A stretch of 64,000 bases of DNA, taken from assembly GCA_977017645.1 (NCBI GenBank), contig OZ360241.1, forward strand, positions 34,100,001 through 34,164,000. Direction: 5' to 3'. This DNA is from Torpedo marmorata. Taxonomy: Eukaryota. The notes beneath the pieces are model-generated. The model saw nothing but the letters and a program-made list of their open reading frames with translations. It made no database searches and was not told where the DNA came from. Shown piece after piece: positions 1,382 through 64,000 of the stretch (positions are counted from its first letter, which is position 1; the number at the start of each line of letters is the position of its first letter). The position numbers and the translations under genes are program-made.

Positions 1382-1432
1382 AGCCACCAATTGTTCCTGA
1401 AAGTAACAAGCCAATTGGTCAAGAGAAACCAG
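1382..1432 (+). CDS. 51-nt linker exon (EPPIVPESNKPIGQEKP) before the divergent SEA module
   Basis: tttcttcatag|AGCCACCA...AAACCAG|gtaatt; phase 1-1, open, Pro-rich, in frame with the exon at 2104. Confidence 0.7.
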
Positions 1433-4400
1433 GTAATTCAACTGCAACCTCCTCTCATATCTAATACATGAAGATGTCAAGTTCAGAAATCTGACTGAAG
1501 CATTTGTACTTCATAAAGAAATGCTTAAAATCGCAACAATATTGGTGTAGACGACAAACTATTATTACATAGAGAGTCAGGTAGTGAATGGTAGGGATTG
1601 TATCTGCCAGTCGGTGACGCGTTGCCTTGCAAGTGATTGGGGTGGGCAATTGAAAACAACCTCTGGAAAACAACAGCCAAAACATAAATTTGCTTGACAT
1701 TTCAAAATGAAAAGCAATAGAATGTTTTAATGATGAAAACAACAATGTTGATGAGCATTGATATTTAGAACTTAGTCTTAGACCATAAGAAATACATGAA
1801 TTCAAAAACATGCCGACTGAATAAAAAACATTTGTTGACAAAAAAAAGCAATGTACACATCTACTTCTTATCATTTCTGCCAGGCACGATGATTACATGT
1901 AAATGCTGCTGTCTGTGCCATCCTGCAGAATTTTACTCAATAGATGAAGCAAATATGTTTGAGAAAATATTTATGAATATCTTAATGAGATGTTTAAGCT
2001 GGGCAGCATTCCATCAATGTGAAACAGATCTTAAAATATGATACATGGTGTTCAGAAAATGGTGGTAACACCAAGTACCAAATTGTGTCTTCTATTTCCA
2101 CAGTTCCAACTGAAAAACCAAGAGCTATTAATCACAATGTAACTTTCACTGTAAAGAAACCAAAATTTGAAGAAATTCAAACAAACTCCCCGAAAGAGGC
2201 TTTCAGGATTCTAGCTGAGGTGAGGCAGTTGGACAACGTTGGTTTCTGGTCAAATATTACCTCATTGTTGTACTTTGTATTCCTTCAACTGACATGAACT
2301 TTGTTGTTGCCCACAGCTCACTGACCTCTTCAAGAACAGCAATATCAATGAAACATTTTTACAATGTGACCTACACTCAATCAGGTAATTTATAATAAGT
2401 GTTCTATTGTATGTGTAAAAATAATTTCTGATAACATCCCATTGTAAAGACACTGCCAGGTGCAGAACATGCAATATACAAGAATCTCAAAGTGGCATCA
2501 GGGCTGAGTACATGTGATTTCTAATGGAAGTGTGCACTGACCATTCCATCATTTGTCAAAATTCACGACCAGCAACATCCTTACTATGCTCTTGCTCTCC
2601 CTGCAATCAACTCTGCTCTTAAGCCTTTAACATTGATACCAAACTTCTTTTGACATTCTGCAGGTCGGCAGTGGGTGACAGCACCAGAGTGACAGCAAAT
2701 TGTTCATTCAACAATGAGTCTCCCAAGGAAGGCATCGACAAGCAACGGATTTATAACGTCTTTCAAGACAAGACCAATGACAGTTCCACACTAGGGACAT
2801 ATGAATTGCTTGGCTATAGCCTCTATGTTGATGGTACTTATCCATATTTTCCTCAGTGTTTCTCTTTGCATTGTCCCACACACAGTCTCCACGAACTGCT
2901 GACTTGTAGCCGGCAGATCACCACAATCAGGTGCAAGGCAACAAATGCACACAAGTTCCTGAGGAGCTCAACTGGGGACTGTTGGGGCCACGGGTGAGTC
3001 CTGGATAGAGCAGTCATTTATTCAACAGAAAGCATGGGCATGATAGAGGAAACAGTGGAAGTTATGAATGTGCAGCCAGGGCAACTTGTGGATTTTGGGA
3101 CACATTCATGGATAGACCTGAAAACAATGGTATTTGCAAATTCTTGTGTTGTTTGAAAATTTCAGTGTACATAAAATTTAAGATAGACTTTGATTCTTGA
3201 TTAAGACCTCCCACCTGAAAGATTTACCAATCACATTAATTGACACTCTGCATGAAACAAGACACAAACACACAACCATTAATCCCCATCTCATCAGCTC
3301 AGCATTGAGCATGGCCTTTGTCCAGAGACACCAGCATGCGGCCTTCCATTTCAGATCCACTTACACACAGACTTCCAGGTGCATTCCCACTCCAGTTTAC
3401 AATGGCTGATTTCAAATGGCTCACAGTCAATATTTCTCCAACTTTCATCACCGATCAACTCTTACGGGCTTCGACACGAACAATTTAGATACACCACTGA
3501 GAGAATATCGTCCCCTTTTGCAAATAAAGTTTAAGTTAATTCAAAGTCTTGCTTTTTAGGATGAGCCTTCCACACTAACTCTCTGCTTCAAACACGTGAC
3601 GCCCCACAAAAGTTTCTGTCTTCCTCACAAGTGTTGAATGAGCAAGTCAAAATCACATTCCTTGCAACAAGGGTAAAAATGAGGCAGCATGTAGGTAAAC
3701 TCATGCAAATAGCACAGCACCCAATGTTGAATAACAAAGTCCTTTATCACTGTTATTTGACATAAAAGAGGAGACATGATTTTTCTCTCTATTAATGCTG
3801 CACGTGGAATTGCAGTGTGAATTTCTGATCACTCAATCTTTCCTTCTTTTCCAGGCTATGGCATGGCGCCCATTGGTGAGTGTGGGTTTCAATTGTATTT
3901 TACACCGTTCTCGATGTTCGTTATAGTTGCACCAAACTATTTCAGCAATATTGTTATTTCATGTCGGTGAATCGAAGAGTCATGCTTTGATAAACATCTT
4001 CAGAGAAACGCACTGCACTGAGAGCACTGCACTGTTTAACTCCACTTTTTCTCTTTAACTCTATACCCTGCACTTTTGGCTTATGGGACATTATACCCCA
4101 TACATTTGTTTTATTGTATCATTGTATACGTTTGTTTTATTGTATCACCATGTTTTTATTCTTACACAACCTACTGGACAATCTAGGAGGTTGACTTGCC
4201 TGGATAGCACGCAAAACAACCTTTTCGCTGTATCTTTTTAAATGTGACAATAAACAATTCAATTCAATCTCTGCCTCCATCCATCCCACCTCACGTCAGT
4301 CTGATCTATACTGTACTGATGTTTCACCAACATTAGCTCTTGCTATGCAACCCCTCAATATTAATATTGTCACCTTGTTTGCAAAGAATTCCAAGGTCTC

Positions 4401-7400
4401 ACCCCTCACAATCTCCTAGACCATTTCTGCCCTTTAACCCTCCTAGATTTCTTACACTTTAATTGTAACAGTGAATATTTATTTATCTATCCTTTTAAAT
4501 TTATTATCACTTTTTCTGCCGTAGCATTTTGTGGTAAGTCAATTTATATTATTGTTGTTGGTGAATCTTACATATTTATTTGGATGCAGCAAGTAAGAAT
4601 TTCAGTGCATCTGTACATTGTACTTGTGTAAATGACAATAGATTCTCATCTCATTTTCTGTCACCTCCTTTTATTCTGGATTATATCACAAAGTAATTGT
4701 TCCCCTGATGTGGAATGTAGAGAACTGAAGTTCAGTAATTCCCTCTCAAAACCTGCTCACATCTCTTCCTTTCTCTGCCTTTCTCTTCCAAAGACATGGT
4801 CTTAAGGAAGAAGTGTCTACAGTAATTCTGTAAGACTGTTAAACATGTTAGACCAGACAGATTGATCCTGGGTCCTGATAAGACTGATTGCATTAATCTT
4901 GTTAAAACACTGTTAAGTATGGTAAAATTTATCCGACACCTCCTATTGACGAATTCATCAGACAATTAATGAGGAATGTAAAAACAATTAAAACAGCATG
5001 TTTGCTTTCTACTGTATAAATGTGAACTTGTAACTGCTGAAATTTAGAGTTGGTGGTAGTTCAGACTAACAAACTCGAGGAGCGAAACTCGAAGTATCTG
5101 TTTTTGAGTTAATTTCTGCGACAATTAATTTCAGTTTTGTAACAAAACGTAAATCACGAAAATCTGTAGACACAGTGGTTGAAGTAAAAACACAAAATGC
5201 TGGAGAGGTCAGCAGGTCAAACAGTGTCCAATATGTAGCAAAGGTAAAGACACATAACCGACATTTTGAATTGAGCCATTCATCAAAGTATGAGAAAATG
5301 CCAGCAGCCACCCGAATAAATACCTTTGCTACATAAATAAAAATGTTTGACCTGCTGAGCTTCTCCAGCTTTTTGTGTTTTTACTGAGTTTTGTAACAAG
5401 TGCACAAAGTCTTGTTGGTTTGATAGAATTAGTGCACCAAATGTAGAAAGTGTTTGACATCAGCTTCAGGACAGCTGTAATTAATGGCATGATGCTGTTG
5501 TCTTTTCAGATTATCATGAATCAACACCTACAACCAGTGAGAATAATTTGTGTTGCTTTCATGTATTAATGCTTCCATACTTTCATTTAAGCAGCAATCC
5601 TGATTGATGATGTATGTTGTTTCCCCTTATAGCTCCATGTGAATTGGATTTTGCTCTCTTGTGTGTCGAACAACCATTCAGTTAGATTATAGTTTGAAAG
5701 TGCCAAACAAAGCAGCAATGCAACAAGGTTGCTAATTTCATTTTTCTTTTTGGCAGAAGTACCAAATAAAAGTGAATATCCTGAATTTAATGTGACCTTC
5801 ACTATAACAAACTTGCCCTGCATGGAGTCACTTCAGAACCCGGCGACACCCTTGTTCCAATCAACTTCACAAACAATTACTAAACAGGTAAATGATCAAA
5901 GCTATATTCATTAAAATTACTTAATCGTCATTTAATATACCGGTATTCAGCTCATTGACATTCTCAAAATATCTTTCTTTCAGCTCACTAACCTACTAAA
6001 TAACAGCGTTATAAATACAACTTTTATAGCCTGCAACACAATCTCCTTCAGGTGAGAAATATACATTATTTTCCTCATTGTTCAATTAACTAATCTATCC
6101 AATAAGCGTCAGGATGGAGGGATCCATCATGTGTTCGGACCTGAAACGTTGACTGACCACATCTCTCCATGGATGCTGCCTGACCCACGGAGTCCCTCCA
6201 GCTCCTCTTTGTTCACTCAAGATTCCAGCAACTGCAGTGTTTGTGCATCTCTTCATCAGGAATCTCATCCTTGTCTCGGTGTTTCATTCTGTACAATTAT
6301 TTTGTTTCATTTCATTTACTTTCTCCCATGTGTTTGACCTGACTTCTCTGAAATTTCACTCCTCTCTTAAATGATTGATTGCTTCAGAATTAATTATCAT
6401 TTCTGGATTTACTTTCCAATCTTTAATATAACTTTAAAATATTTCTCCAACTGCTTCCTTTACATATTTCCAAATGTTCCTACATTAACAATTTTCATTA
6501 ATAAATTCAAAATCGGATGCATGCCACATTAATATTTACTTTCCTGCCTCCAAGGGACATTAAAAACTTCCAGCTTAGCATTTTTTTTTCATCAGACTCT
6601 GCTACTTACTCCAACTTTCTCTTTCAAATACCATACTTTTTATTATTGAATGTTATTTTTAATAGATTGCAAATTTCTAGTTATAATTAAGCTTTTATAT
6701 TTATTTTTGACTTTTAAGTTAACATTTTAAATTTTGGTTTAAGTTAGCGTTTAAATTCACTGGTACCATATCTCCATATCATTTATAAAGTGATCCAATT
6801 ATAATAATTAGCATTACTGTAACAGCAAATTTAAATCAGGGCTCATGAAAAATAGAGAACTCCAAATGTGATAAATCTGAAATAAAAATTGAGCATGTTT
6901 AAACAGTCAACAGATCAAGTAACACATGTGGAAAGAGAAAAGAAAGATCTTCCACCTGACATGCAATGCGAAAAAGTGCTGGAGAAACACAGCAGGTCAC
7001 GCAGAATCCATGTGAAGTAAAGTGTAAACAATGTTTCAGGCCTGGGCCCTTCATCAGGAATCGTTGGTTACCCGTTTCTTTCTTTGGATGCTGTGTGGCC
7101 TGCTGAGTTTGCGTTCTGCACTCAATTCCAGCATCCGCAGATTTTCTTGTTTCGCCCCAATCTTCCACCTGAAGCATTTTTCCACAGATGTTGCTGTGTT
7201 TCCAGCATTTTTGGTTTTATTATAAAACATGGCCATATTTGAGAATATAACCAGTGTATCATAATGACATCTTTATTCCCACAATCAGTAATGATCTATC
7301 CACTAAGCCATCAGATTTTGTGCATAAAATTGTCAAATATTTAAGTTATGAAAACCATCCTTAAATAAAATCAACCACCTATGAAGTGCATGAATGTAAT

Positions 7401-10400
7401 TAGTTAAATAATTTTCATTTTAATATCCTCCAGTTTTTCCTATATTTCATAATTATCATAATCACCAATTCTGATGAAGTCTCCTTCACCAGAAGTGCTG
7501 TTTCTCTTCCCTCTGCTGCTGTCTGACCTGCGAACTAAAAGAGTGCAGCATTTTCTGTTTTAGTTTTCCAGGATCTACAGTTTTATGCTCCAAATAAAAT
7601 GTTCTTGTTTGGCAGTGCTACAAGCAGTCACAAGACCAAAGTGCATGCAGTCTGTACATTCAACAATACTTCTGCTGCGGAGAATGTGGATAGAGTAATG
7701 GTGTATCATCAGATCAGTAACAAGACAAAGAACATCAGTGTTTTGGGACCCTATACTCTGGACAACAACAGCCTCCATGTAAATGGTACGAAATACCTGG
7801 TCTTTTTTTGCATTATATCCTGGAAACCATATTGTAACCTCAGATAATATATTAATGTGTTGAATCATTTTTACTCTTATATTTCCAAATGGAATTCTTG
7901 CATTAATCAGTGATCCTTAATTCCAGACTCCGTAACCAGCAAAAACATTTCCTAACCATTCCATGAGTCCTCCTACTGCCTTGATATGGCAATCACATCA
8001 AACCTTGACCTTTTTGTTTGTGTAATCTCTATCTATAAACTAACCCCAGAAGTCAGGTTTCATTCCAGTAAAAATGTGTTTTTTCCCAATCAAGGTGAAT
8101 ATAACCCTGAATATAACTTTTGCAAGGTGTAGTTAGTGTTTTCAAAAATCTCGGCATTGTCCAACCATGGATTTGCACAATAAAGCACAACTTCTATCCC
8201 CTGTGTTCTAGTTTTTTGCATATAAAAGTATCACTGGCCTTACCTCTTATTATCTGTTCTTGCCCATAACATTTGAAGTAGGGCTGAGGTAGATGAACAA
8301 CAAAACAATACTGCTGCAGAGAAGGTGGATGGAGTTACCTTGTACCATCAGTTCAGTAGCAACACAGAGAACATCATGAAATATGGATCTTATATTCTGA
8401 ATGAAAATAGTCTCGACGTAGATAGTACGAAATTTCTTATCATTCTACATATTACAGCAAAGCTTGTTCCAGAATATGTCCAGCAATGTGCCTTTCATTA
8501 AACTGTGTGCTGATTTGGTAGTGTTACCTTCCAACTGAATCCCCTTGAATTCCACTTCCCCACTGGGAGTGCAGTGCTGCATTATTCGTGTGAAAGAAAG
8601 GGCTAGTGCAGGTTGGGAAACTTGACTTTTACAAGCAAACTGAATTAAAAACTACTGATGCCAGCTGAGAGCAACGTTCAGTATAAGCAAAGTTGCGAGA
8701 GTTTCCAATAAACAAGACTGGTACCCCGTTTACACAGAGATCCCACTTAGTTGCATGTGAACGACCCGTGTTTAAAGCCAGGTCGGGTCGTACACACTTA
8801 ATGAAGGAAAGCTGGGTCAGTGCGACCATTTACTTAGCAACACGGCATCCGGAGCAAAAGGAGGTGGGACCTGCAGCATTACAGCGTCGGTGTCCTGTGT
8901 GATGTATAACGTACGCGCCGGGCAGTGACCTCGTCGCGACCTCGTTACTGCCGTTTTAAGTTTGAATCTCTCGCTGGTATGTCGTACACATTCAACGTCA
9001 TCAATGTGTCACAGCCTGCGAAATACATCGGCTCTGATACTACCTACCTTGGCGGGTAATACACGGGATGAAAATGACCTCCCATCCCGCGTTTGTTGTG
9101 TTCACACAGTTAAGTGAAACGGTTAAAAGGCAGTTAATTCCCGTCTTTTAACGGCTGTGTAAAAGGGGTATCGGTCTTAAGGAAGAAGTGTCTACATTAA
9201 TTCTGTAAGACTGTTGAACATGTGAGACCAGACTGATTGATCATGGTTCCTAATAAGACTGATTACATTAATCTTGTTCAAACACTGTGAAGTATGGTGA
9301 AAGACTGATTGAGTTAACCCATTGAAAAATTCATCAGACACCTCCTATTGACGAATTCATCAGACACTTCATAAGGAATGTAAAAACAATTAAACCAGCT
9401 TGTCTGCTTTCTACTGTACAATATAAAAATGAACTTGTAACTGCTGAAATTTAGAGTTGGTGGTGGTTTAGGCCACTGCAGGCTCTCCATGATATCATTT
9501 TAATAAACTCGAGGAGCGAACCTCGATGTATATGTTTTTGAGTGAATTTGTGCAACAATTCATTTGAGCTTTTTAACATGTGCACAAAGTCTTCTTGGTT
9601 TGATAGAATTAGTGCACCAAATGTAGAAAGTGTTTGACATCAGATTCAGGACAGCTGTAATTAATGGCATAATGCTGTTGTCTTTTCAGATTATCATGAA
9701 TCAACACCTACAACCAGTGAGTATGATTTGTGTTGCTTTCATGTATTAATGCTTCCATACTTTCATTTAAGCAGCAATCCTGATTGATGATGTATGTTGT
9801 TTCCCCTTATAGCTCCATGTGAATTGGATTTTGCTCTCTTGTGTGTCGAACAACCATTCAGTTAGATTATAGTTTGAAAGTGCCAAACAAAGCCGCAATG
9901 CAACAAGGTTGCTAATTTCATTTTTCTTTTTGGCAGAAGTACCAAATAAAAGTGAATCTCCTGAATTTAATGTGACCTTCACTATAACAAACTTGCCCTA
10001 CATGGAGTCACTTCAGAACCCGGCGACACCCTTGTTCCAATCAACTTCACAAACAATTACTGAACAGGTAAATAAATGATCAAAGCAATATTCATTAAAA
10101 TTAATCGTCATTTAATATATTCAGCTCATTGACATTCTCAAAATATCTTTCTTTCAGCTCACTAACCTACTTAATAACAGCGATATAAATACAACTTTTA
10201 TAGACTGCAACACAATCTCCTTCAGGTGAGAAATATGCATTATCTTCCTCATTGTTCAATTAACTAATCTATCCAATAAGCGTCAGGATGGAGGGATCCA
10301 TCATGTGTTCGGATCTGAAACGTTGACTGACCACATCTCTCCATGGATGCTGCCTGACCCACGGAGTCCCTCCAGCTCCTCTTTGTTCACTCAAGATTCC

Positions 10401-52400: not shown

Positions 52401-55400
52401 GCAGATTTTCTTGTTTCGCCCCAATCTTCCACCTGAAGCATTTTTCCACAGATGTTGCTGTGTTTCCAGCATTTTTGGTTTTATTATAAAACATGGCCAT
52501 ATTTGAGAATATAACCAGTGTATCATAATGACATCTTTATTCCCACAATCAGTAATGATCTATCCACTAAGCCATCAGATTTTGTGCATAAAATTGTCAA
52601 ATATTTAAGTTTTGAAAACCATCCTTAAATAAAATCAACCACCTAGAAAGTGCATGAATGTAATTAGTTAAATAATTTTCATTTTAATATCCTCCAGTTT
52701 TTCCTCTATTTCATAATTATCATAATCACCAATTCTGATGAAGTCTCCTTCACCAGAAGTGCTGTTTCTCTTCCCTGTGCTGCTGTCTGACCTGCGAACT
52801 AAAAGAGTGCAGCATTTTCTGTTTTAGTTTTCCAGGATCTACAGTTTTATGCTCCAAATAAAATGTTCTTGTTTGGCAGTGCTACAAGCAGTCACAAGAC
52901 CAAAGTGCATGCAGTCTGTACATTCAACAATACTTCTGCTGCGGAGAATGTGGATAGAGTAATGGTGTATCATCAGATCAGTAACAAGACAAAGAACATC
53001 AGTGTTTTGGGACCCTATACTCTGGACAACAACAGCCTCCATGTAAATGGTACGAAATACCTGGTCTTTTTTTGCATTATATCCTGGAAACCATATTGTA
53101 ACCTCAGATAATATATTAATGTGTTGAATCATTTTTACTCTTATATTTCCAAATGGAATTCTTGCATTAATCAGTGATCCTTAATTCCCGACTCCGTAAC
53201 CAGCAAAAACATATCCTACCAATTCCATGAGTCCTCCTACTGCCTTGATATGGCAATCAAATCAAACCTTGACCTTTTTGTTTGTGTAATCTCTATCTAT
53301 AAACTAACCCCAGAAGTCAGGTTTCATTCCAGTAAAAATGTGTTTTTTCCCAATCAAGGTGAATATAACCCTGAATATAACTTTTGCAAGGTGTAGTTAG
53401 TGTTTTCAAAAATCTCGGCATTGTCCAACCATGGATTTGCACAATAAAGCACAACTTCTATCCCCTGTGTTCTAGTTTTCTGCATATAAAAGTATCACTG
53501 GCCTTACCTCTTATTATCTGTTCTTGCCCATAACATTTGAAGTAGGCCGAGGTAGATGAACAACAAAACAATACTGCTGCAGAGAAGGTGGATGGAGTTA
53601 CCTTGTACCATCAGTTCAGTAGCAACACAGAGAACATCATGAAATATGGATCTTATATTCTGAATGAAAATAGTCTCGACGAAGATAGTACGAAATTTCT
53701 TATCATTCTACATATTACAGCAAAGCTTGTTCCAGAATATGTCCAGCAATGTGCCTTTCATTAAACTGTGTGCTGATTTGGTAGTGTTACCTTCCAACTG
53801 AATCCCCTTGAATTCCACTTCCCCACTGGGAGTGCAGTGCTGCATTATTCGTGTGAAAGAAAGGGCTAGTGCAGGTTGGGAAACTTGACTTTTACAAGCA
53901 AACTGAATTAAAAACTACTGATGCCAACTGAGAGCAACGTTCAGTATAAGCAAAGTTGCGAGAGTTTCCAATAAACAAGACTGGTACCCCGTTTACACAG
54001 AGATCCCACTTAGTTGCATGTGAACGACCCGTGTTTAAAGCCAGGTCGGGTCGTACACACTTAATGAAGGAAAGCTATTGACGAATTCATCAGACACTTC
54101 ATAAGGAATGTAAAAACAATTAAACCAGCTTGTCTGCTTTCTACTGTACAATATAAAAATGAACTTGTAACTGCTGAAATTTAGAGTTGGTGGTGGTTTA
54201 GGCCACTGCAGGCTCTCCATGATATCATTTTAATAAACTCGAGGAGCGAACCTCGATGTATATGTTTTTGAGTGAATTTGTGCAACAATTCATTTGAGCT
54301 TTTTAACATGTGCACAAAGTCTTCTTGGTTTGATAGAATTAGTGCACCAAATGTAGAAAGTGTTTGACATCAGATTCAGGACAGCTGTAATTAATGGCAT
54401 AATGCTGTTGTCTTTTCAGATTATCATGAATCAACACCTACAACCAGTGAGTATGATTTGTGTTGCTTTCATGTATTAATGCTTCCATACTTTCATTTAA
54501 GCAGCACTCCTGATTGATGATGTATGTTGTTTCCCCTTATAGCTCCATGTGAATTGGATTTTGCTCTCTTGTGTGTCGAACAACCACTCAGTTAGATTAT
54601 AGTTTGAAAGTGCCAAACAAAGCCGCAATGCAACAAGGTTGCTAATTTCATTTTTCTTTTTGGCAGAAGTACCAAATAAAAGTGAATCTCCTGAATTTAA
54701 TGTGACCTTCACTATAACAAACTTGCCCTACATGGAGTCACTTCAGAACCCGGCGACACCCTTGTTCCAATCAACTTCACAAACAATTACTGAACAGGTA
54801 AATAAATGATCAAAGCAATATTCATTAAAATTAATCGTCATTTAATATATTCAGCTCATTGACATTCTCAAAATATCTTTCTTTCAGCTCACTAACCTAC
54901 TTAATAACAGCGATATAAATACAACTTTTATAGACTGCAACACAATCTCCTTCAGGTGAGAAATATGCATTATCTTCCTCATTGTTCAATTAACTAATCT
55001 ATCCAATAAGCGTCAGGATGGAGGGATCCATCATGTGTTCGGTTCTGAAACGTTGACTGACCACATCTCTCCATGGATGCTGCCTGACCCACGGAGTCCC
55101 TCCAGCTCCTCTTTGTTCACTCAAGATTCCAGCATCTGCAGTGTTTGTGCATCTCTTCATCGGGAATCTCATCCTTGTCTCGGTGTTTCCTTCTGTACAA
55201 TTATTTTGTTTCATTTCATTTACTTTCTCCAATGTGTTTGACCTGACTTCTCTGAAATTTCACTCCTCTCTTAAATGGTTGATTGCTTCAGAATTAATTA
55301 TCATTTCTGGATTTACTTTCCAATCTTTAATATAACTTTAAAATATTTCTCCATCTGCTTCCTTTACATATTTCCAAAAGTTCCTACATTAACAATTTTC

Positions 55401-58400
55401 ATTAATAAATTAAAAATCGGATGCATGCCACATTATTATTTACTTTCCTGCCTCCAAGGGACATTAAAAACTTCCAGCTGAGCATTTTTTTTTCATCAGA
55501 CTCTGCTACTTACTCCAACTTTCTCTTTCAAATACCATACTTTTTATTATTGAATGTTATTTTTAATAGATTGGAAATTTCTAGTTATAATTAAGCTTTT
55601 ATATTTATTTTTGACTTTTAAGTTAACATTTTAAATTTTGGTTTAAGTTAGCGTTTAAATTCACTGGTACCATATCTCCATATCATTTATAAAGTGATCC
55701 AATTATAATAATTAGCATTACTGTAACAGCAAATTTAAATCAGGGCTCATGAAAAATAGAGAACTCCAAATGTGAGAAATCTGAAATAAAAATTGAGCAT
55801 GTTTAAACAGTCAACAGATCAAGTAACACATGTGGAAAGAGAAAAGAAAGATCTTCCACCTAACATGCAATGCGAAAAAGTGCTGGAGAAACACAGCAGG
55901 TCACGCAGAATCCATGTGAAGTAAAGTGTAAACAATGTTTCAGGCCTGGGCCCTTCATCAGGAATCGTTGGTTACCCGTTACTTTCTTTGGATGCTGTGT
56001 GGCCTGCTGAGTTTGCGTTCTGCACTCAATTCCAGCATCCGCAGATTTTCTTGTTTCGCCCCAATCTTCCACCTGAAGCATTTTTCCACAGATGTTGCTG
56101 TGTTTCCAGCATTTTTGGTTTTATTATAAAACATGGCCATATTTGAGAATATAACCAGTGTATCATAATGACATCTTTATTCCCACAATCAGTAATGATC
56201 TATCCACTAAGCCATCTGATTTTGTGCATAAAATTGTCAAATATTTAAGTTTTGAAAACCATCCTTAAATAAAATCAACCACCTAGAAAGTGCATGAATG
56301 TAATTAGTTAAATAATTTTCATTTTAATATCCTCCAGTTTTTCCTATATTTCATAATTATCATAATCACCAATTCTGATGAAGTCTCCTTCACCAGAAGT
56401 GCTGTTTCTCTTCCCTCTGCTGCTGTCTGACCTGCGAACTAAAAGAGTGCAGCATTTTCTGTTTTAGTTTTCCAGGATCTACAGTTTTATGCTCCAAATA
56501 AAATGTTCTTGTTTGGCAGTGCTACAAGCAGTCACAAGACCAAAGTGCATGCAGTCTGTACATTCAACAATACTTCTGCTGCGGAGAATTTGGATAGAGT
56601 AATGGTGTATCATCAGATCAGTAACAAGACAAAGAACATCAGTGTTTTGGGACCCTATACTCTGGACAACAACAGCCTCCATGTAAATGGTACGAAATAC
56701 CTGGTCTTTTTTTGCATTATATCCTGGAAACCATATTGTAACCTCAGATAATATATTAATGTGTTGAATCATTTTTACTCTTATATTTCCAAATGGAATT
56801 CTTGCATTAATCAGTGATCCTTAATTCCCGACTCCGTAACCAGCAAAAACATTTCCTATCCATTCCATGAGTCCTCCTACTGCCTTGATATGGCAATCAA
56901 ATCAAACCTTGACCTTTTTGTTTGTGTAATCTCTATCTATAAACTAACCCCAGAAGTCAGGTTTCATTCCAGTAAAAATGTGTTTTTTCCCAATCAAGGT
57001 GAATATAACCCTGAATATAACTTTTGCAAGGTGTAGTTAGTGTTTTCAAAAATCTCGGCATTGTCCAACCATGGATTTGCACAATAAAGCACAACTTCTA
57101 TCCCCCGTGTTCTAGTTTTCTGCATATAAAAGTATCACTGGCCTTACCTCTTATTATCTGTTCTTGCCCATAACATTTGAAGTAGGCCGAGGTAGATGAA
57201 CAACAAAACAATACTGCTGCAGAGAAGGTGGATGGAGTTACCTTGTACCATCAGTTCAGTAGCAACACAGAGAATATCATGAAATATGGATCTTATATTC
57301 TGAATGAAAGTAGTCTCGACGTAGATAGTACGAAATTTCTTATCATTCTACATATTACAGCAAAGCTTGTTCCAGAATATGTCCAGCAATGTGCCTTTCA
57401 TTAAACTGTGTGCTGATTTGGTAGTGTTACCTTCCAACTGAATCCCCTTGAATTCCACTTCCCCACTGGGAGTGCAGTGCTGCATTATTCGTGTGAAAGA
57501 AAGGGCTAGTGCAGGTTGGGAAACTTGACTTTTACAAGCAAACTGAATTAAAAACTACTGATGCCAGCTGAGAGCAACGTTCAGTATAAGCAAAGTTGCG
57601 AGAGTTTCCAATAAACAAGACTGGTACCCCGTTTACACAGAGATCCCACTTAGTTGCATGTGAACGACCCGTGTTTAAAGCCAGGTCGGGTCGTACACAC
57701 TTAATGAAGGAAAGCTGGGTCAGTGCGACCATTTACTTAGCAACACGGCATCCGGAGCAAAAGGAGGTGGGACCTGCAGCATTACAGCGTCGGTGTCCTG
57801 TGTGATGTATAACGTACGCGCCGGGCAGTGACCTCGTCGCGACCTCGTTACTGCCGTTTTAAGTTTGAATCTCTCGCTGGTATGTCATACACATTCAGCG
57901 TCATCAATGCGTCACAGCCTGCGAAATACATCGGCTCTGATACTACCTACCTTGGCGGGTAATACACGGGATGAAAATGACCTCCCATCCCGCGTTTGCT
58001 GTGTTCACACAGGTAAGTGAAACGGTTAAAAGGCAGTTAATTCCCGTCTTTTAACGGCTGTGTAAAAGGGGTATCGATCTTAAGGAAGAAGTGTCTACAT
58101 TAATTCTGTAAGACTGTTGAACATGTGAGACCAGACTGATTGATCATGGTTCCTAATAAGACTGATTACATTAATCTTGTTCAAACACTGTGAAGTATGG
58201 TGAAAGACTGATTGAGTTAACCCATTGAAAAATTCATCAGACACCTCCTATTGACGAATTCATCAGACACTTCATAAGGAATGTAAAAACAATTAAACCA
58301 GCTTGTCTGCTTTCTACTGTACAATATAAAAATGAACTTGTAACTGCTGAAATTTAGAGTTGGTGGTGGTTTAGGCCACTGCAGGCTCTCCATGATATCA

Positions 58401-61400
58401 TTTTAATAAACTCGAGGAGCGAACCTCGATGTATATGTTTTTGAGTGAATTTGTGCAACAATTCATTTGAGCTTTTTAACATGTGCACAAAGTCTTCTTG
58501 GTTTGATAGAATTAGTGCACCAAATGTAGAAAGTGTTTGACATCAGATTCAGGACAGCTGTAATTAATGGCATAATGCTGTTGTCTTTTCAGATTATCAT
58601 GAATCAACACCTACAACCAGTGAGTATGATTTGTGTTGCTTTCATGTATTAATGCTTCCATACTTTCATTTAAGCAGCACTCCTGATTGATGATGTATGT
58701 TGTTTCCCCTTATAGCTCCATGTGAATTGGATTTTGCTCTCTTGTGTGTCGAACAACCATTCAGTTAGATTATAGTTTGAAAGTGCCAAACAAAGCCGCA
58801 ATGCAACAAGGTTGCTAATTTCATTTTTCTTTTTGGCAGAAGTACCAAATAAAAGTGAATCTCCTGAATTTAATGTGACCTTCACTATAACAAACTTGCC
58901 CTACATGGAGTCACTTCAGAACCCGGCGACACCCTTGTTCCAATCAACTTCACAAACAATTACTGAACAGGTAAATAAATGATCAAAGCAATATTCATTA
59001 AAATTAATCGTCATTTAATATATTCAGCTCATTGACATTCTCAAAATATCTTTCTTTCAGCTCACTAACCTACTTAATAACAGCGATATAAATACAACTT
59101 TTATAGACTGCAACACAATCTCCTTCAGGTGAGAAATATGCATTATCTTCCTCATTGTTCAATTAACTAATCTATCCAATAAGCGTCAGGATGGAGGGAT
59201 CCATCATGTGTTCGGTTCTGAAACGTTGACTGACCACATCTCTCCATGGATGCTGCCTGACCCACGGAGTCCCTCCAGCTCCTCTTTGTTCACTCAAGAT
59301 TCCAGCATCTGCAGTGTTTGTGCATCTCTTCATCGGGAATCTCATCCTTGTCTCGGTGTTTCCTTCTGTACAATTATTTTGTTTCATTTCATTTACTTTC
59401 TCCAATGTGTTTGACCTGACTTCACTGAAATTTCACTCCTCTCTTAAATGGTTGATTGCTTCAGAATTAATTATCATTTCTGGATTTACTTTCCAATCTT
59501 TAATATAACTTTAAAATATTTCTCCATCTGCTTCCTTTACATATTTCCAAAAGTTCCTACATTAACAATTTTCATTAATAAATTCAAAATCGGATGCATG
59601 CCACATTAATATTTACTTTCCTGCCTCCAAGGGACATTAAAAACTTCCAGCTAAGCATTTTTTTTTCATCAGACTCTGCTACTTACTCCAACTTTCTCTT
59701 TCAAATACCATACTTTTTATTATTGAATGTTATTTTTAATAGATTGGAAATTTCTAGTTATAATTAAGCTTTTATATTTATTTTTGACTTTTAAGTTAAC
59801 ATTTTAAATTTTGGTTTAAGTTAGCGTTTAAATTCACTGGTACCATATCTCCATATCATTTATAAAGTGATCCAATTATAATAATTAGCATTACTGTAAC
59901 AGCAAATTTAAATCAGGGCTCATGAAAAATAGAGAACTCCAAATGTGATAAATCTGAAATAAAAATTGAGCATGTTTAAACAGTCAACAGATCAAGTAAC
60001 ACATGTGGAAAGAGAAAAGAAAGATCTTCCACCTAACATGCAATGCGAAAAAGTGCTGGAGAAACACAGCAGGTCACGCAGAATCCATGTGAAGTAAAGT
60101 GTAAACAATGTTTCAGGCCTGGGCCCTTCATCAGGAATCGTTGGTTACCCGTTACTTTCTTTGGATGCTGTGTGGCCTGCTGAGTTTGCGTTCTGCACTC
60201 AATTCCAGCATCCGCAGATTTTCTTGTTTCGCCCCAATCTTCCACCTGAAGCATTTTTCCACAGATGTTGCTGTGTTTCCAGCATTTTTGGTTTTATTAT
60301 AAAACATGGCCATATTTGAGAATATAACCAGTGTATCATAATGACATCTTTATTCCCACAATCAGTAATGATCTATCCACTAAGCCATCAGATTTTGTGC
60401 ATAAAATTGTCAAATATTTAAGTTATGAAAACCTTCCTTAAATAAAATCAACCACCTAGAAAGTGCATAAATGTAATTAGTTAAATAATTTTCATTTTAA
60501 TATCCTCCAGTTTTTCCTCTATTTCATAATTATCATAATCACCAATTCTGATGAAGTCTCCTTCACCAGAAGTGCTGTTTCTCTTCCCTGTGCTGCTGTC
60601 TGACCTGCGAACTAAAAGAGTGCAGCATTTTCTGTTTTAGTTTTCCAGGATCTACAGTTTTATGCTCCAAATAAAATGTTCTTGTTTGGCAGTGCTACAA
60701 GCAGTCACAAGACCAAAGTGCATGCAGTCTGTACATTCAACAATACTTCTGCTGCGGAGAATGTGGATAGAGTAATGGTGTATCATCAGATCAGTAACAA
60801 GACAAAGAACATCAGTGTTTTGGGACCCTATACTCTGGACAACAACAGCCTCCATGTAAATGGTACGAAATACCTGGTCTTTTTTTGCATTATATCCTGG
60901 AAACCATATTGTAACCTCAGATAATATATTAATGTGTTGAATCATTTTTACTCTTATATTTCCAAATGGAATTCTTGCATTAATCAGTGATCCTTAATTC
61001 CAGACTCCGTAACCAGCAAAAACATTTCCTATCCATTCCATGAGTCCTCCTACTGCCTTGATATGGCAATCAAATCAAACCTTGACCTTTTTGTTTGTGT
61101 AATCTCTATCTATAAACTAACCCCAGAAGTCAGGTTTCATTCCAGTAAAAATGTGTTTTTTCCCAATCAAGGTGAATATAACCCTGAATATAACTTTTGC
61201 AAGGTGTAGTTAGTGTTTTCAAAAATCTCGGCATTGTCCAACCATGGATTTGCACAATAAAGCACAACTTCTATCCCCTGTGTTCTAGTTTTCTGCATAT
61301 AAAAGTATCACTGGCCTTACCTCTTATTATCTGTTCTTGCCCATAACATTTGAAGTAGGCCGAGGTAGATGAACAACAAAACAATACTGCTGCAGAGAAG

Positions 61401-63301
61401 GTGGATGGAGTTACCTTGTACCATCAGTTCAGTAGCAACACAGAGAATATCATGAAATATGGATCTTATATTCTGAATGAAAATAGTCTCGACGTAGATA
61501 GTACGAAATTTCTTATCATTCTACATATTACAGCAAAGCTTGTTCCAGAATATGTCCAGCAATGTGCCTTTCATTAAACTGTGTGCTGATTTGGTAGTGT
61601 TACCTTCCAACTGAATCCCCTTGAATTCCACTTCCCCACTGGGAGTGCAGTGCTGCATTATTCGTGTGAAAGAAAGGGCTAGTGCAGGTTGGGAAACTTG
61701 ACTTTTACAAGCAAACTGAATTAAAAACTACTGATGCCAGCTGAGAGCAACGTTCAGTATAAGCAAAGTTGCGAGAGTTTCCAATAAACAAGACTGGTAC
61801 CCCGTTTACACAGAGATCCCACTTAGTTGCATGTGAACGACCCGTGTTTAAAGCCAGGTCGGGTCGTACACACTTAATGAAGGAAAGCTGGGTCAGTGCG
61901 ACCATTTACTTAGCAACACGGCATCCGGAGCAAAAGGAGGTGGGACCTGCAGCATTACAGCGTCGGTGTCCTGTGTGATGTATAACGTACGCGCCGGGCA
62001 GTGACCTCGTCGCGACCTCGTTACTGCCGTTTTAAGTTTGAATCTCTCGCTGGTATGTCATACACATTCAGCGTCATCAATGCGTCACAGCCTGCGAAAT
62101 ACATCGGCTCTGATACTACCTACCTTGGCGGGTAATACACGGGATGAAAATGACCTCCCATCCCGCGTTTGCTGTGTTCACACAGGTAAGTGAAACGGTT
62201 AAAAGGCAGTTAATTCCCGTCTTTTAACGGCTGTGTAAAAGGGGTATCGATCTTAAGGAAGAAGTGTCTACATTAATTCTGTAAGACTGTTGAACATGTG
62301 AGACCAGACTGATTGATCATGGTTCCTAATAAGACTGATTACATTAATCTTGTTCAAACACTGTGAAGTATGGTGAAAGACTGATTGAGTTAACCCATTG
62401 AAAAATTCATCAGACACCTCCTATTGACGAATTCATCAGACACTTCATAAGGAATGTAAAAACAATTAAACCAGCTTGTCTGCTTTCTACTGTACAATAT
62501 AAAAATGAACTTGTAACTGCTGAAATTTAGAGTTGGTGGTGGTTTAGGCCACTGCAGGCTCTCCATGATATCATTTTAATAAACTCGAGGAGCGAACCTC
62601 GATGTATATGTTTTTGAGTGAATTTGTGCAACAATTCATTTGAGCTTTTTAACATGTGCACAAAGTCTTCTTGGTTTGATAGAATTAGTGCACCAAATGT
62701 AGAAAGTGTTTGACATCAGATTCAGGACAGCTGTAATTAATGGCATAATGCTGTTGTCTTTTCAGATTATCATGAATCAACACCTACAACCAGTGAGTAT
62801 GATTTGTGTTGCTTTCATGTATTAATGCTTCCATACTTTCATTTAAGCAGCACTCCTGATTGATGATGTATGTTGTTTCCCCTTATAGCTCCATGTGAAT
62901 TGGATTTTGCTCTCTTGTGTGTCGAACAACCATTCAGTTAGATTATAGTTTGAAAGTGCCAAACAAAGCCGCAATGCAACAAGGTTGCTAATTTCATTTT
63001 TCTTTTTGGCAGAAGTACCAAATAAAAGTGAATCTCCTGAATTTAATGTGACCTTCACTATAACAAACTTGCCCTACATGGAGTCACTTCAGAACCCGGC
63101 GACACCCTTGTTCCAATCAACTTCACAAACAATTACTGAACAGGTAAATAAATGATCAAAGCAATATTCATTAAAATTAATCGTCATTTAATATATTCAG
63201 CTCATTGACATTCTCAAAATATCTTTCTTTCAGCTCACTAACCTACTTAATAACAGCGATATAAATACAACTTTTATAGACTGCAACACAATCTCCTTCA
63301 G
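1382..63301 (+). CDS. MUC16: Internal part of a large spliced MUC16-like (CA125-type) tandem SEA-domain mucin; at least 17 SEA modules in the window, open at both ends
   Basis: Exons with GT-AG ends and compatible phases (1-1, 1-0, 0-2, 2-1) join without stops. Motifs FNVTFTITNLPY, a Cys pair, and LGPYTLDNNSLHVN resemble the MUC16 repeat motifs FTLNFTITNL, C..C and LGPYTLDRNSLYVNG. The family call is strong; orthology to MUC16 is not proven. Confidence 0.8.
2104..2219 (+). CDS. Divergent SEA module 0, exon B (VPTEKPRAINHNVTFTVKKPKFEEIQTNSPKEAFRILAE)
   Basis: tatttccacag| ... GCTGAG|gtgagg; 116 nt, phase 1-0; NVTFT motif shared with array exon B. Confidence 0.85.
2317..2384 (+). CDS. Divergent SEA module 0, exon C (LTDLFKNSNINETFLQCDLHSI-R)
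   Basis: cccacag|CTCACT...ATCAG|gtaatt; 68 nt, same size and phase (0-2) as array exon C; LFKN and first Cys as in MUC16 SEA. Confidence 0.88.
2664..2833 (+). CDS. Divergent SEA module 0, exon D (SAVGDSTRVTANCSFNN...LGTYELLGYSLYVD)
   Basis: ttctgcag|G...GTTGATG|gtactt; 170 nt, same size and phase (2-1) as array exon D; second Cys and LGxYxL..SLYV motif. Confidence 0.88.
3855..3875 (+). CDS. 21-nt microexon (GYGMAPI) after SEA module 0
   Basis: Strong acceptor ctttccttcttttccag and consensus donor G|gtgagt; phase 1-1; completes the SLYVD-GY motif. Confidence 0.7.
4010..4268 (+). repeat. Probable LINE/SINE 3'-end remnant
   Basis: Ends in gtgacaataaa followed by a caatt/caattc microsatellite-like tail; internal duplication of tttgttttattgtatca; family not identified. 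Confidence 0.4.
5146..5386. mobile_element. 241-bp fold-back (inverted-repeat) element with 13-bp flanking direct repeat, probably Penelope-like-derived
   Basis: agttttgtaacaa duplicated at 5133-5145 and 5387-5399; arms agtaaaaacacaaaatgctggagaggtcagcaggtcaaaca / tgtttgacctgctgagcttctccagctttttgtgtttttact; the homologous site in units 2-16 is empty. Confidence 0.75.
5510..7785 (+). CDS. SEA repeat unit 1: join(5510..5536,5757..5887,5984..6051,7616..7785), 132 aa
   Basis: GT-AG exons of 27/131/68/170 nt in frame; five amino-acid differences from the array consensus in exons B and C. Confidence 0.88.
6135..6260. mobile_element. Degenerate half copy of the same fold-back family, present in every unit
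   Basis: cctgaaacgttgactg...ggatgctgcctgacc...cctccagc...gattccagca.ctgcag resembles the right arm of 6968-7152. Confidence 0.45.
6968..7152. mobile_element. Fold-back element of the same family, in the C-D intron of every complete unit, with a hammerhead-like core on the minus strand
   Basis: Arms cagcaggtcacgcagaatcca / tggatgctgtgtggcctgctg; shares the gctggaga..cagcaggtc motif with 5146-5386; minus strand 7057-7033 reads CTGATGA-AGG-gcccagg-CCT-GAAAC. Confidence 0.6.
8304..8424 (+). pseudogene. Fossil, diverged 3' part of a SEA exon D (pseudo-exon D'), present in all 15 complete units
   Basis: Open frame NNTAAEKVDGVTLYHQFSSNTENIMKYGSYILNENSLDVD aligns to exon D NNTSAAENVDRVMVYHQISNKTKNISVLGPYTLDNNSLHVN and is followed by the same gtacgaaat donor context; the 5' Cys-containing part is missing. 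Confidence 0.8.
8722..9170. mobile_element. About 450-bp non-autonomous DNA transposon (MITE, possibly PIF/Harbinger-like); intact also at 12895-13343, 57625-58073 and 61798-62246
   Basis: Terminal inverted repeats taccccgtttacacag / ctgtgtaaaaggggta (15/16 match); interior is CpG-rich unlike the surrounding intron; no coding capacity. Superfamily is a guess and the TSD is not resolved. Confidence 0.7.
9690..11959 (+). CDS. SEA repeat unit 2: join(9690..9716,9937..10067,10158..10225,11790..11959)
   Basis: Consensus repeat DYHESTPTT KVPNKSESPEFNVTFTITNLPYMESLQNPATPLFQSTSQTITEQ LTNLLNNSDINTTFIDCNTISF SATSSHKTKVHAVCTFNNTSAAENVDRVMVYHQISNKTKNISVLGPYTLDNNSLHVN; splice sites intact. Confidence 0.9.
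13863..16132 (+). CDS. SEA repeat unit 3: join(13863..13889,14110..14240,14331..14398,15963..16132)
   Basis: Same four exons and splice sites as unit 2. Confidence 0.9.
17504..20291 (+). CDS. SEA repeat unit 4: join(17504..17530,17751..17881,17968..18035,20122..20291)
   Basis: Same exons; ENLDR variant; L1 insertion in the C-D intron. Confidence 0.9.
18645..19150 (-). mobile_element. 5'-truncated L1-clade LINE (ORF2 C-terminus + 3'UTR + A-rich tail), private to unit 4
   Basis: 506-bp insert absent from the other units; 16-bp TSD attgaatgttattttt at 18629-18644 and 19151-19166; minus-strand peptide LVTWKS..W..EM..CIPLEKITY..F..IWRPF* is typical of non-mammalian vertebrate L1 ORF2 ends; AATAAA and A-run on the minus strand. 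Confidence 0.88.
21663..23932 (+). CDS. SEA repeat unit 5: join(21663..21689,21910..22040,22131..22198,23763..23932)
   Basis: Same four exons and splice sites as unit 2. Confidence 0.9.
25303..27572 (+). CDS. SEA repeat unit 6: join(25303..25329,25550..25680,25771..25838,27403..27572)
   Basis: Same four exons and splice sites as unit 2. Confidence 0.9.
28943..31212 (+). CDS. SEA repeat unit 7: join(28943..28969,29190..29320,29411..29478,31043..31212)
   Basis: Same four exons and splice sites as unit 2. Confidence 0.9.
32583..34852 (+). CDS. SEA repeat unit 8: join(32583..32609,32830..32960,33051..33118,34683..34852)
   Basis: Same four exons and splice sites as unit 2. Confidence 0.9.
36223..38492 (+). 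CDS. SEA repeat unit 9: join(36223..36249,36470..36600,36691..36758,38323..38492)
   Basis: Same exons; ENLDR variant. Confidence 0.9.
39864..42133 (+). CDS. SEA repeat unit 10: join(39864..39890,40111..40241,40332..40399,41964..42133)
   Basis: Same four exons and splice sites as unit 2. Confidence 0.9.
43504..45773 (+). CDS. SEA repeat unit 11: join(43504..43530,43751..43881,43972..44039,45604..45773)
   Basis: Same four exons and splice sites as unit 2. Confidence 0.9.
47391..49409 (+). CDS. SEA repeat unit 12: join(47391..47521,47608..47675,49240..49409); exon A (47144..47170) has lost its AG acceptor
   Basis: Exons B-D intact; exon A acceptor reads ttttcac instead of ttttcag (position 47143). 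Confidence 0.85.
50780..53049 (+). CDS. SEA repeat unit 13: join(50780..50806,51027..51157,51248..51315,52880..53049)
   Basis: Same four exons and splice sites as unit 2. Confidence 0.9.
54420..56689 (+). CDS. SEA repeat unit 14: join(54420..54446,54667..54797,54888..54955,56520..56689)
   Basis: Same exons; ENLDR variant. Confidence 0.9.
58593..60862 (+). CDS. SEA repeat unit 15: join(58593..58619,58840..58970,59061..59128,60693..60862)
   Basis: Same four exons and splice sites as unit 2. Confidence 0.9.
62766..63301 (+). CDS. SEA repeat unit 16 (partial): join(62766..62792,63013..63143,63234..63301); exon D lies beyond the window
   Basis: Exons A-C identical in size and splice sites to unit 2. 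Confidence 0.88.
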
Positions 63302-64000
63302 GTGAGAAATATGCATTATCTTCCTCATTGTTCAATTAACTAATCTATCCAATAAGCGTCAGGATGGAGGGATCCATCATGTGTTCGGTTCTGAAACGTT
63401 GACTGACCACATCTCTCCATGGATGCTGCCTGACCCACGGAGTCCCTCCAGCTCCTCTTTGTTCACTCAAGATTCCAGCATCTGCAGTGTTTGTGCATCT
63501 CTTCATCGGGAATCTCATCCTTGTCTCAGTGTTTCCTTCTGTACAATTATTTTGTTTCATTTCATTTACTTTCTCCAATGTGTTTGACCTGACTTCACTG
63601 AAATTTCACTCCTCTCTTAAATGGTTGATTGCTTCAGAATTAATTATCATTTCTGGATTTACTTTCCAATCTTTAATATAACTTTAAAATATTTCTCCAT
63701 CTGCTTCCTTTACATATTTCCAAAAGTTCCTACATTAACAATTTTCATTAATAAATTCAAAATCGGATGCATGCCACATTAATATTTACTTTCCTGCCTC
63801 CAAGGGACATTAAAAACTTCCAGCTAAGCATTTTTTTTTCATCAGACTCTGCTACTTACTCCAACTTTCTCTTTCAAATACCATACTTTTTATTATTGAA
63901 TGTTATTTTTAATAGATTGGAAATTTCTAGTTATAATTAAGCTTTTATATTTATTTTTGACTTTTAAGTTAACATTTTAAATTTTGGTTTAAGTTAGCGT

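Follow-up and report, generated by a model that had tools for sequence, protein, structure and literature searches.

The defining feature of MUC16 is the presence of many tandem SEA domains in one polypeptide chain (PMC1552070). In human MUC16, each repeat covers 156 amino acids and five exons, and there are 19 such repeats, a number previously over-counted at 63. MUC16 repeats are devoid of the GSVVV autoproteolysis motif (PMC3431878). In mammals, the repeats are mostly 60-89% alike, and only 2 of 28 proteins contain four or more SEAs in a block at 95% identity.

In elasmobranchs, a paralogue of mucin-16-like proteins with a GIYYxHL tail (Pristis pectinata P0184 and P0047, Hemitrygon akajei P0003, Mobula hypostoma P0006, Amblyraja radiata P0001) is known from database annotations, and no functional study of it was found. 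These proteins harbor tandem blocks of near-identical SEAs (eight in each stingray, the sawfish having a total of 29 SEAs). They amplify an upstream SEA class with a 127-aa period, the third-from-last SEA being single. A literature search, outside of which most subscription papers lay, gave no publication about cartilaginous-fish MUC16. A shark skin-mucus proteome that gives gel-forming mucins never mentions MUC16, which counts against the reading proposed below.

Near-identical exon-intron units of several kilobases, each adding one folded domain to the protein, also make up the kringle IV-2 region of LPA, where copy-number polymorphism is established; the array described below is built in the same way, from a different domain and in a different gene. 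More generally, a published survey of protein repeats describes high repeat purity and a signal of recombination in lineage-specific, independently folding domains. These features are all shared by our array. The survey regards the pattern as rare and contains no mention of mucins, and here it is seen for whole exon-intron cassettes.

The present study concerns 64,000 nucleotides of Torpedo marmorata DNA, the whole of which is called the window. It probably corresponds to the middle of a batoid MUC16-family gene, belonging to the GIYYxHL-tail paralogue, with an array under concerted evolution and a type I membrane mucin as its product.

Organization of the Array

From about 5.4 kb to the end of the window, 20-mers have a multiplicity of about 15, with periods of 3,636-3,641 and 4,159-4,180 bp. 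Tandem Repeats Finder, whose maximum period is 500, called no repeats, and an Rfam scan of positions 1-21,700 gave no match. The repeated unit is a frame-preserving cassette of four exons, A to D (27 + 131 + 68 + 170 nt, i.e., 132 codons), made up of a 19-residue Thr/Pro linker and one MUC16-type SEA domain. It is repeated at least 16 times, in 15 complete copies and one cut by the window end, and is preceded by one diverged SEA (Table 1). Exons A, B, and C are each present 16 times and exon D 15 times. When spliced from position 1382, five lead exons and the array form a single frame of 2,196 codons with no stop, and the longest stop-free stretch obtained without splicing, in all six frames, is 143 codons. 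The original prediction of at least 16 copies of a four-exon cassette, giving 132-aa SEA units and more than 2,000 aa, is therefore borne out.

AG and GT ends bound 62 of the 63 array exons. Only exon A of copy 12 departs from this, at its acceptor, and skipping of this 27-nt exon keeps the frame open. Independent support for the exon calls comes from tblastn with relatives, which gives matches at the exons starting at 1382, 2104, 2317, 2664, 5757, 5984, and 7616. The first of these is the earliest exon of the gene that can be placed within the window, the gene itself beginning further upstream. The lead cassette contains one additional linker exon. Positions 1-1381 and 3876-5509 have no further SEA exons, the former being also devoid of a long ORF, and the window carries no gene other than the poly-SEA mucin.

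Table 1. Positions of the exons, copies, and intronic elements in the window.
Feature	Position	Strand	Remarks
Lead linker exon, 51 nt, Pro-rich	1382..1432	+	AG/GT ends; matches linker of skate and zebra-shark mucin-16-like proteins
Diverged lead SEA, exons 2104-2219, 2317-2384, 2664-2833	2104..2833	+	Open in spliced model; matched by family HMM
Putative 21-nt linker mini-exon 3' of lead SEA	3855..3875	+	AG/GT ends, in frame; without homology support of its own
Array left edge	4798..5509	+	Segments 4798-5144 and 5385-5509; see text
Copy 1, long form, at array edge: A 5510-5536, B 5757-5887, C 5984-6051, D 7616-7785	5510..9689	+	Exons B and D match Pfam SEA
Relic second D-type exon, D'	8293..8424 (copy 1)	+	Once per complete copy, in 15 of 15
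MITE-like intronic element, terminal inverted arms of 24 nt	8714..9178 (copy 1 coordinates)	.	
Copy 2, long form: A 9690-9716, B 9937-10067, C 10158-10225, D 11790-11959	9690..13862	+	
533-bp segment	12985..13517 (copy 2 coordinates)	.	Present in copies 1, 2, 14, and 15; deleted in copies 3-13
Copies 3-13, short form, 3,636-3,641 bp	13863..54419	+	Copy 4 is 4,159 bp via insertion
Starts of copies 3-13	13863, 17504, 21663, 25303, 28943, 32583, 36223, 39864, 43504, 47144, 50780	+	
Insertion of about 520 bp, only in copy 4	18630..19166	-	15-bp target-site duplication; A-rich end on minus strand
Broken exon A acceptor, copy 12	47142..47143	+	AC for AG
Long-form copies 14 and 15, 4,173 bp each	54420..62765	+	
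Copy 16, cut by window end: A 62766-62792, B 63013-63143, C 63234-63301	62766..64000	+	

The Unit Encodes a SEA Domain of the MUC16 Type

Seven single exons were used as queries against Pfam SEA (PF01390; gathering cut-off 26.4 bits) and three of them matched: exon B with 29.1 and 33.4 bits (profile 3-35) and exon D with 28.8 bits (profile 62-106). Exon C and three lead exons gave no match. An HMM built from relatives finds 17 domains in the spliced model, corresponding to the lead SEA, the 15 complete copies, and the cut one. In PDB searches, the best match of exon D is MUC16 (E 6e-9), with no other SEA family up to E 10, and exon B matches the mouse MUC16 homologue with E 2.9e-6 vs. 0.09 for MUC1. 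Hence, MUC16 comes first by several orders of magnitude and the unit is nearer to MUC16 than to MUC1 or TMPRSS SEAs. The same search with a shark relative also ranks MUC16 first; its matches at E >0.05 (Shiga-toxin and others) were discarded as chance. The Pfam and PDB matches together fix the predicted fold of the unit as SEA.

The two cysteines of the unit, Cys70 and Cys89, are present in all 15 complete copies and align with the pair of the baboon repeats; the loop has 18 residues, vs. 19 in mammalian MUC16. They probably form a disulfide. The initial assignment to a MUC16-type SEA with a Cys loop thus agrees with the Pfam scores, the PDB ranking, and the aligned cysteine pair. Mammalian MUC16/CA125 (PDB 7SA9, 8GKL, 8VM1, and mouse 1IVZ) shares with the window tandem SEAs, the paired-Cys loop, and a multi-exon cassette, with about 38-40% identity per unit. 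As in mammalian MUC16, the repeats have no GSVVV, the motif GS[VI]x[VI] being absent from all 2,196 aa; a GSVVV-like motif is found near the C-terminus of six of nine comparators, and in the last SEA of several orthologues. N-glycan sequons are more numerous, with nine per unit vs. 2-3 per mammalian repeat.

The chain has many tandem SEAs, as in MUC16, and differs from the human protein by its four exons and 132 aa per repeat. However, five exons and 156 aa do not define the family, since baboon MUC16 has 134-aa repeats devoid of the extra linker piece, at the same place as in the window unit, and since the periods of fish, frog, and turtle proteins range from 124 to 142 aa. Orthology to mammalian MUC16 is putative and rests on similarity and names.

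A Different SEA Position Was Amplified

Poly-SEA mucin-16-like proteins are annotated in sharks, rays, chimaera, bichir, lungfish, frogs, reptiles, and mammals. In a quick SEA tree (113 columns), the array unit groups with the third-from-last SEA of one batoid paralogue, in a clade with sawfish, skate, and two stingrays (SH-aLRT 98). Tree position and similarity thus assign the cassette to the third-from-last SEA of the family architecture. Identity to this SEA reaches 73% in sawfish and 63-65% in stingrays, so that the cartilaginous fish first thought probable can be narrowed to a batoid. The lead SEA falls into the class amplified by stingrays and sawfish (SH-aLRT 97), and monophyly of the lead and array SEAs is rejected (p-AU 1e-8). 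SEA classes and their order are the same as in the elasmobranch paralogue. Two SEAs located in sawfish between the lead class and the third-from-last SEA are missing here, which indicates that the gene also underwent deletions.

Near-identical blocks (four or more SEAs, 95% identity) were found in 13 of 72 named relatives. This survey took one isoform per gene, dropped domains under about 90 aa, and left out entries without a name, ape entries close to human, and several from mammals and sharks that were redundant or fragmentary. The window's block, with 15 or more units, is the largest among those surveyed, and exceeds the uniform blocks of the elasmobranch paralogues in size. It amplifies a different SEA from that amplified by stingrays and sawfish. 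As originally predicted, the amplification of one cassette is lineage-specific: the block is species-specific and the batoids compared keep this SEA position single. The unit also has eight sequons in its SEA core, vs. 4-6 in the elasmobranch paralogues, a number reached by 14 of 379 cartilaginous-fish SEA cores.

The amplification had also been proposed to be independent of MUC16, i.e., to have produced a poly-SEA mucin when a single SEA cassette was amplified in one very recent burst. The near-identity and species-specificity of the present copies, the difference in exon number and repeat length from human MUC16, and the fact that none of the batoids compared has this SEA position in a large block go in this direction. 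However, positional orthologues exist in poly-SEA mucin-16-like proteins across cartilaginous fish and tetrapods, primate repeats do without the same linker piece, the window SEAs are not one clade, and the edge segments have diverged by 10% and 2.3%. An independent origin is therefore largely refuted and extremely unlikely.

In sawfish, stingrays, skates, and sharks, every complete orthologue of the paralogue has a hydrophobic helix and a tail at its C-terminus, and the stingray orthologue has a hydrophobic N-terminus with only about 180 aa before the first SEA. These C-terminal ends argue against a secreted mucus or jelly glycoprotein devoid of membrane anchor. Such a product would agree with the absence of a hydrophobic helix in the window (maximum 0.92) and with several annotated relatives being fragments without helix, but the window stops inside the array, in copy 16. 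We consider it very unlikely, and favor a tethered mucin.

A Relic Exon and Intronic Elements

All complete copies contain a relic exon, D', which most closely resembles the fourth-from-last SEA in the sawfish protein. Its 5' part is gone and its acceptor is weak; the donor GT is intact in 15 of 15 copies and the frame is open. Identity to sawfish is 65% for D', with conserved residues lost, vs. about 77% for exon D and its orthologue. D' may serve as a 132-nt in-frame cassette. We rejected the idea that D' and exon D are used as mutually exclusive alternatives, since D' has lost the 5' part that would hold the second Cys and since a one-base indel segregates upstream of it.

The long and short forms of the unit differ by a 533-bp deletion, which takes out the right half of the intronic inverted-repeat element. 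The insertion in copy 4 is a 5'-truncated retroelement, which we take by resemblance to be LINE-like.

Copies Are Recombinant Mosaics

Protein identity among copies 2-15 is 99-100%. Copy 1 is at 96%, with five amino-acid differences, among them an additional Cys. No difference separates copies 6 and 7 over 3,640 bp, and the remaining complete copies are all distinct. The mean pairwise difference among copies 2-15 is 0.50% in introns vs. 0.09% in exons (0.58 vs. 0.29% when copy 1 is included). Introns are thus homogenised, as had been noted, although they are not quite as identical as the exons.

Within copies 2-15, 69 sites are variable, of which 42 are singletons and 27 are common to several copies, in recombinant patterns that depend on array position. 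The four-gamete test is failed by 138 of 351 informative site pairs, near pairs being more compatible (p 0.0005). Copies diverge more the farther apart they lie in the array (rho 0.42, p 0.0002), neighbours being more alike, and divergence also rises toward the edge, from 0.2% in the core to 2.3 and 10.1%. At the left edge, 4798-5144 is a copy of part of the unit's last intron that is 10% diverged, and 5385-5509 is 95% identical. Grouping of own-species copies, recombination, and more diverged edge copies are the hallmarks of concerted evolution. Altogether, the edge-to-core divergence, the recombinant copies, and the similarity of neighbours indicate an older duplication under concerted evolution, rather than one very recent burst. 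"Very recent" was therefore overstated for the array, given its left edge, and is apt in relative terms for its homogenisation; with a single shark mutation rate, 0.2-0.5% divergence corresponds to over a million generations.

The same variants bear on whether the assembler made many copies out of a few real ones, the differences being sequencing errors. The identical pair, the proportion of singletons, a transition to transversion ratio of 23:46, which is that of random errors, and the previous over-counting of human MUC16 itself would all be consistent with such an artefact. However, 14 of 15 complete copies are distinct, shared variants track array position, a retroelement flanked by a target-site duplication is private to one copy, four copies have the 533-bp segment in common, and errors would not leave exons less variable. 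The transition ratio does not prove sequencing error, since it is similar (13:22) in the old, 10% diverged edge. Over-expansion is thus quite improbable, though the exact copy number may differ by a few units.

Constraint on the array is weakly shown. In copies 2-15, variable sites are depleted in exons (1/396 vs. 68/3,240 in introns, p 0.005), but this depletion disappears with edge copy 1 (7/396 vs. 84/3,240, p 0.40), and six of the seven exonic variants are non-synonymous, as under neutrality (79% of sites expected). It may be asked whether the expansion is neutral or decaying, i.e., a pseudogene or mostly skipped cassettes with a frame open only because the copies are young. The non-synonymous variants, the unpaired Cys gained in copy 1, the acceptor lost in copy 12, the relic exon in every copy, and the deletion of neighbouring SEAs can be read in this way. 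Against it stand the 2,196 codons free of stops and frameshifts, which include the old lead SEA, the better conservation of exon D than of D' relative to sawfish, and the lower variability of exons in copies 2-15. We regard a neutral or decaying expansion as unlikely.

Proposed Model

The concerted evolution of an array in a membrane mucin gene, our preferred reading, would likely have begun with one older tandem duplication, the unit of which carried the relic exon of the preceding SEA. Unequal crossing-over and conversion would then have expanded the array and kept its copies uniform. Since the cassette starts and ends in the same phase, whole-cassette gain, loss, or skipping alters length only. 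By comparison with orthologues, the array would be followed downstream by two further SEAs, a transmembrane helix, and a short tail, which would make the product a type I membrane mucin. The ectodomain would be a long string of disulfide-stapled, non-self-cleaving SEA beads with about nine N-glycans each. Such a protein may act as an epithelial glycocalyx spacer and barrier, and may be shed by cleavage near the membrane.

Significance

The array is a real but largely expected variant of MUC16, neither a new kind of protein nor a new mechanism, and an extreme case of a process that recurs in vertebrate MUC16. The poly-SEA architecture of MUC16 is old, as it is common to cartilaginous fish and tetrapods, and the repeat region turns over by concerted evolution at the level of the cassette, the amplified SEA differing between lineages. 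Genes of this kind collapse or fragment in assemblies, which calls for caution.

More speculatively, jawed-vertebrate MUC16 could be a genomic accordion, in which exon-intron SEA cassettes are repeatedly amplified and homogenised and each lineage picks another SEA. The SEA picked in this ray is among the most N-glycan-dense of the family. For its extended glycocalyx, the animal might rely on folded beads that together carry about 145 or more N-glycan sites, not on an O-glycosylated PTS tract, and the length might segregate in the population under parasite or microbe pressure. The array offers a clean natural system for the role of tandem SEAs in length, N-glycan display, and ligand avidity.

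Gene model and structure of the array

The sequence is unique until ~4.8 kb, and from there a head-to-tail array runs through the end of the window, in which 20-mers recur about 15 times and the period is 3,636-3,641 or 4,159-4,180 bp. Fifteen copies of the four-exon cassette (exons A to D) are complete and a 16th is truncated after exon C. AG and GT ends border 62 of the 63 array exons; the exception is exon A of copy 12, whose skipping keeps the reading frame. Together with five upstream exons, the array gives a spliced model of 2,196 codons with zero stops, in a window where no unspliced open frame exceeds 143 codons, and translated searches using relatives matched the modelled exons independently. 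The original prediction, four-exon cassettes joined by splicing into a long open frame, was thus accurate. Its statement that introns are about as identical as exons needs a slight refinement, the differences in copies 2-15 being 0.50% in introns vs. 0.09% in exons. At ~940-960, a good acceptor precedes a 21-nt in-frame candidate mini-exon, possibly a linker exon before 1382, though without homology support.

Features of the SEA array and its surroundings
Feature	Position	Strand	Description
Upstream exons	1382-1432, 2104-2219, 2317-2384, 2664-2833, 3855-3875	+	Add one diverged SEA domain (lead SEA)
Cassette exons A, B, C, D (per period)		+	27, 131, 68 and 170 nt; 396 nt = 132 codons
D', second D-type exon, possible relic	8293-8424		Recurs at the corresponding site of each complete copy (15 in all); shares 74% identity with exon D
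Inverted-repeat element	8714-9178 (copy 1)		In the unit's last intron; half-deleted in copies 3-13
Retroelement insertion	18630-19166		Copy 4 alone; 15-bp target-site duplication; open 58-codon stretch on minus strand

Relationship to MUC16

The SEA assignment originally proposed is borne out at the single-exon level, exons B and D each passing the Pfam SEA cut-off singly (3 of 7 exon queries). Against the PDB, exon D matched MUC16 chains alone among SEA families (E 6e-9 to 2e-8), and exon B matched a mouse MUC16 homologue (2.9e-6) and MUC1 (0.09). Protein searches returned mucin-16 or mucin-16-like proteins from skates, rays, sawfish, sharks, chimaera, bichir, lungfish, frogs, reptiles, and mammals. 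In the full library, exon D had 156 matches. Each unit joins a 19-residue linker, rich in Thr and Pro, to a SEA domain, in which Cys70-Cys89 of the unit align with the primate C-loop. All MUC16 features that can be checked in the window are present except the human repeat of five exons and 156 aa, whereas the window unit has four exons and 132 aa. Repeat length is variable inside the family, baboon having 134-aa repeats without the same piece as the window unit. In chicken, MUC16 was already recognized as a multi-SEA mucin (PMC1552070). The window gene appears to work like MUC16; the basis for its deeper connection with the mammalian gene is similarity and not synteny.

Compared with the third-from-last SEA of other batoids, the repeat unit shows 73% identity in the sawfish orthologue (Pristis pectinata) and 63-65% in two stingrays (Hemitrygon akajei, Mobula hypostoma). 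In a quick tree search (113 columns, 54 rows), the array units cluster with the SEAs at the third-from-last position in four batoids (SH-aLRT 98), and the upstream SEA class amplified in those batoids takes in the lead SEA (97); constraining lead and array SEAs together is rejected (p-AU 1e-8). Judged by sequence comparison, these identities, groupings, and the rejection place the animal among the batoids and make the gene the GIYYxHL-tail paralogue, and the array is a single pre-existing position amplified within an old architecture. At least two elasmobranch mucin-16-like paralogues exist (two or three were seen), distinguished by two tail types, and several of them lie on contigs given with equal lengths; no literature on them was found. 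Annotated sawfish isoforms of 3,821, 3,694, 3,567, and 3,440 aa differ by 127-aa steps, i.e., models omitting whole SEA cassettes.

Evolution of the array

The 15 complete copies include 14 distinct sequences. Copies 2-15 have 69 variable sites, 27 of them shared; 138 of 351 site pairs fail the four-gamete test, and compatibility is greater for near than for far sites (p 0.0005). The farther apart two copies lie in the array, the more they diverge (rho 0.42, p 0.0002; inside copies 5-13, rho 0.31, p 0.047). From the left edge inwards, divergence is 10.1% (4798-5144), then 2.3% in the first kilobase of copy 1 and 0.2% in the core. A 533-bp deletion marks copies 3-13. The inverted-repeat element, possibly MITE-like, is missing from the homologous left-edge segment. 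The copy-4 retroelement, which may be LINE-like, is a usable marker for dating array turnover. The best match of D' is the fourth-from-last sawfish SEA, and D' may be a relic or a cryptic cassette. Its frame is open and its GT donor preserved in 15/15 copies, and its weak acceptor would give 44 extra in-frame residues. We infer from this pattern an older duplication, expanded and homogenized by unequal exchange. The LPA array offers a parallel. Such expansion and homogenization are described for domain repeats generally (PMC5100051).

Over-assembly would offer another origin for near-identical copies, and the transitions:transversions ratio of 23:46 in copies 2-15 is error-like. However, the old edge likewise has 13:22, and over-assembly is unlikely because variants are shared and ordered by position and insertions are specific to single copies. 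Such richness in transversions is in itself unusual for a vertebrate locus. Human MUC16 was formerly over-counted, with 63 repeats vs. 19 (PMC10829539), so the copy count in the window is provisional pending raw reads.

If the epaulette-shark mutation rate (7e-10 per site per generation; PMC10587355) is taken as a proxy, although it comes from a different order and could be severalfold off, the core would represent ~1.4 million generations of divergence, copies 2-15 would represent 3.5 million, and as much as 0.6 million could separate two identical copies. Neither a young age in years nor polymorphism of the array follows from copy identity alone.

On whether the homogenized array is functional, the evidence points both ways. 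The frame is intact, including the old lead SEA, and in copies 2-15 (copy 1 excluded as the edge copy) only 1 of 396 exonic sites varies vs. 68 of 3,240 intronic sites (p 0.005, sites being non-independent). Yet this contrast disappears when copy 1 is included (7 exonic vs. 84 intronic, p 0.40), and of the 7 variants in exons, 6 are amino-acid replacements, as expected under neutrality. Copy 1 has five residue differences (5757-6051), of which comparison with sawfish makes three derived in copy 1 and two in the array; one of the former creates an unpaired Cys, and both of the latter go towards acidic residues.

Homogenized SEA blocks in relatives

Named relatives were surveyed with one isoform per gene, a block meaning at least four SEAs with 95% identity. 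Blocks of at least four occur in 8/32 cartilaginous-fish proteins, 3/12 from other non-mammals, and 2/28 from mammals; blocks of at least eight occur in three, one, and none, respectively. All these counts are biased down by a 4,246-aa limit on the searches, by scoring of the best candidates only, and by the collapse of such arrays in assemblies. The largest blocks among these relatives have 12 SEAs (thorny skate) and 10 (lungfish), vs. 15 in the window; with 29, the sawfish orthologue exceeds the window in total SEAs but is less uniform. Within the mammalian set, near-identical blocks are confined to two ground squirrels (7 and 6). Because blocks recur across the relatives surveyed, the window is the most extreme instance of a recurring pattern and not an isolated case. 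Peculiar to it are the SEA position amplified, the loss of the two SEAs that would otherwise separate the amplified SEA from the lead class, and nine sequons per unit (eight per core vs. 4-6 in orthologues), a core density attained by 14 of 379 cartilaginous-fish cores.

Searches of chiefly open literature turned up no work on cartilaginous-fish MUC16 or on the concerted evolution of its cassettes. The feature is real, and both the MUC16 family and homogenized SEA blocks are already widespread. MUC16 goes unmentioned in a shark skin-mucus proteome (PMC10707392).

Proposed product

The units have no GSVVV self-cleavage motif (for background in MUC16 SEAs, see PMC3431878), which several orthologues have solely near the membrane. 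At their ends, complete orthologues carry a further pair of SEAs, then a hydrophobic helix and a short tail. The likely product would be a type I membrane mucin, whose ectodomain, a long, uncleaved, and heavily N-glycosylated string of beads, would extend the epithelial glycocalyx and might be shed near the membrane, and whose phase-symmetric cassettes would allow its length to change without breaking the frame.
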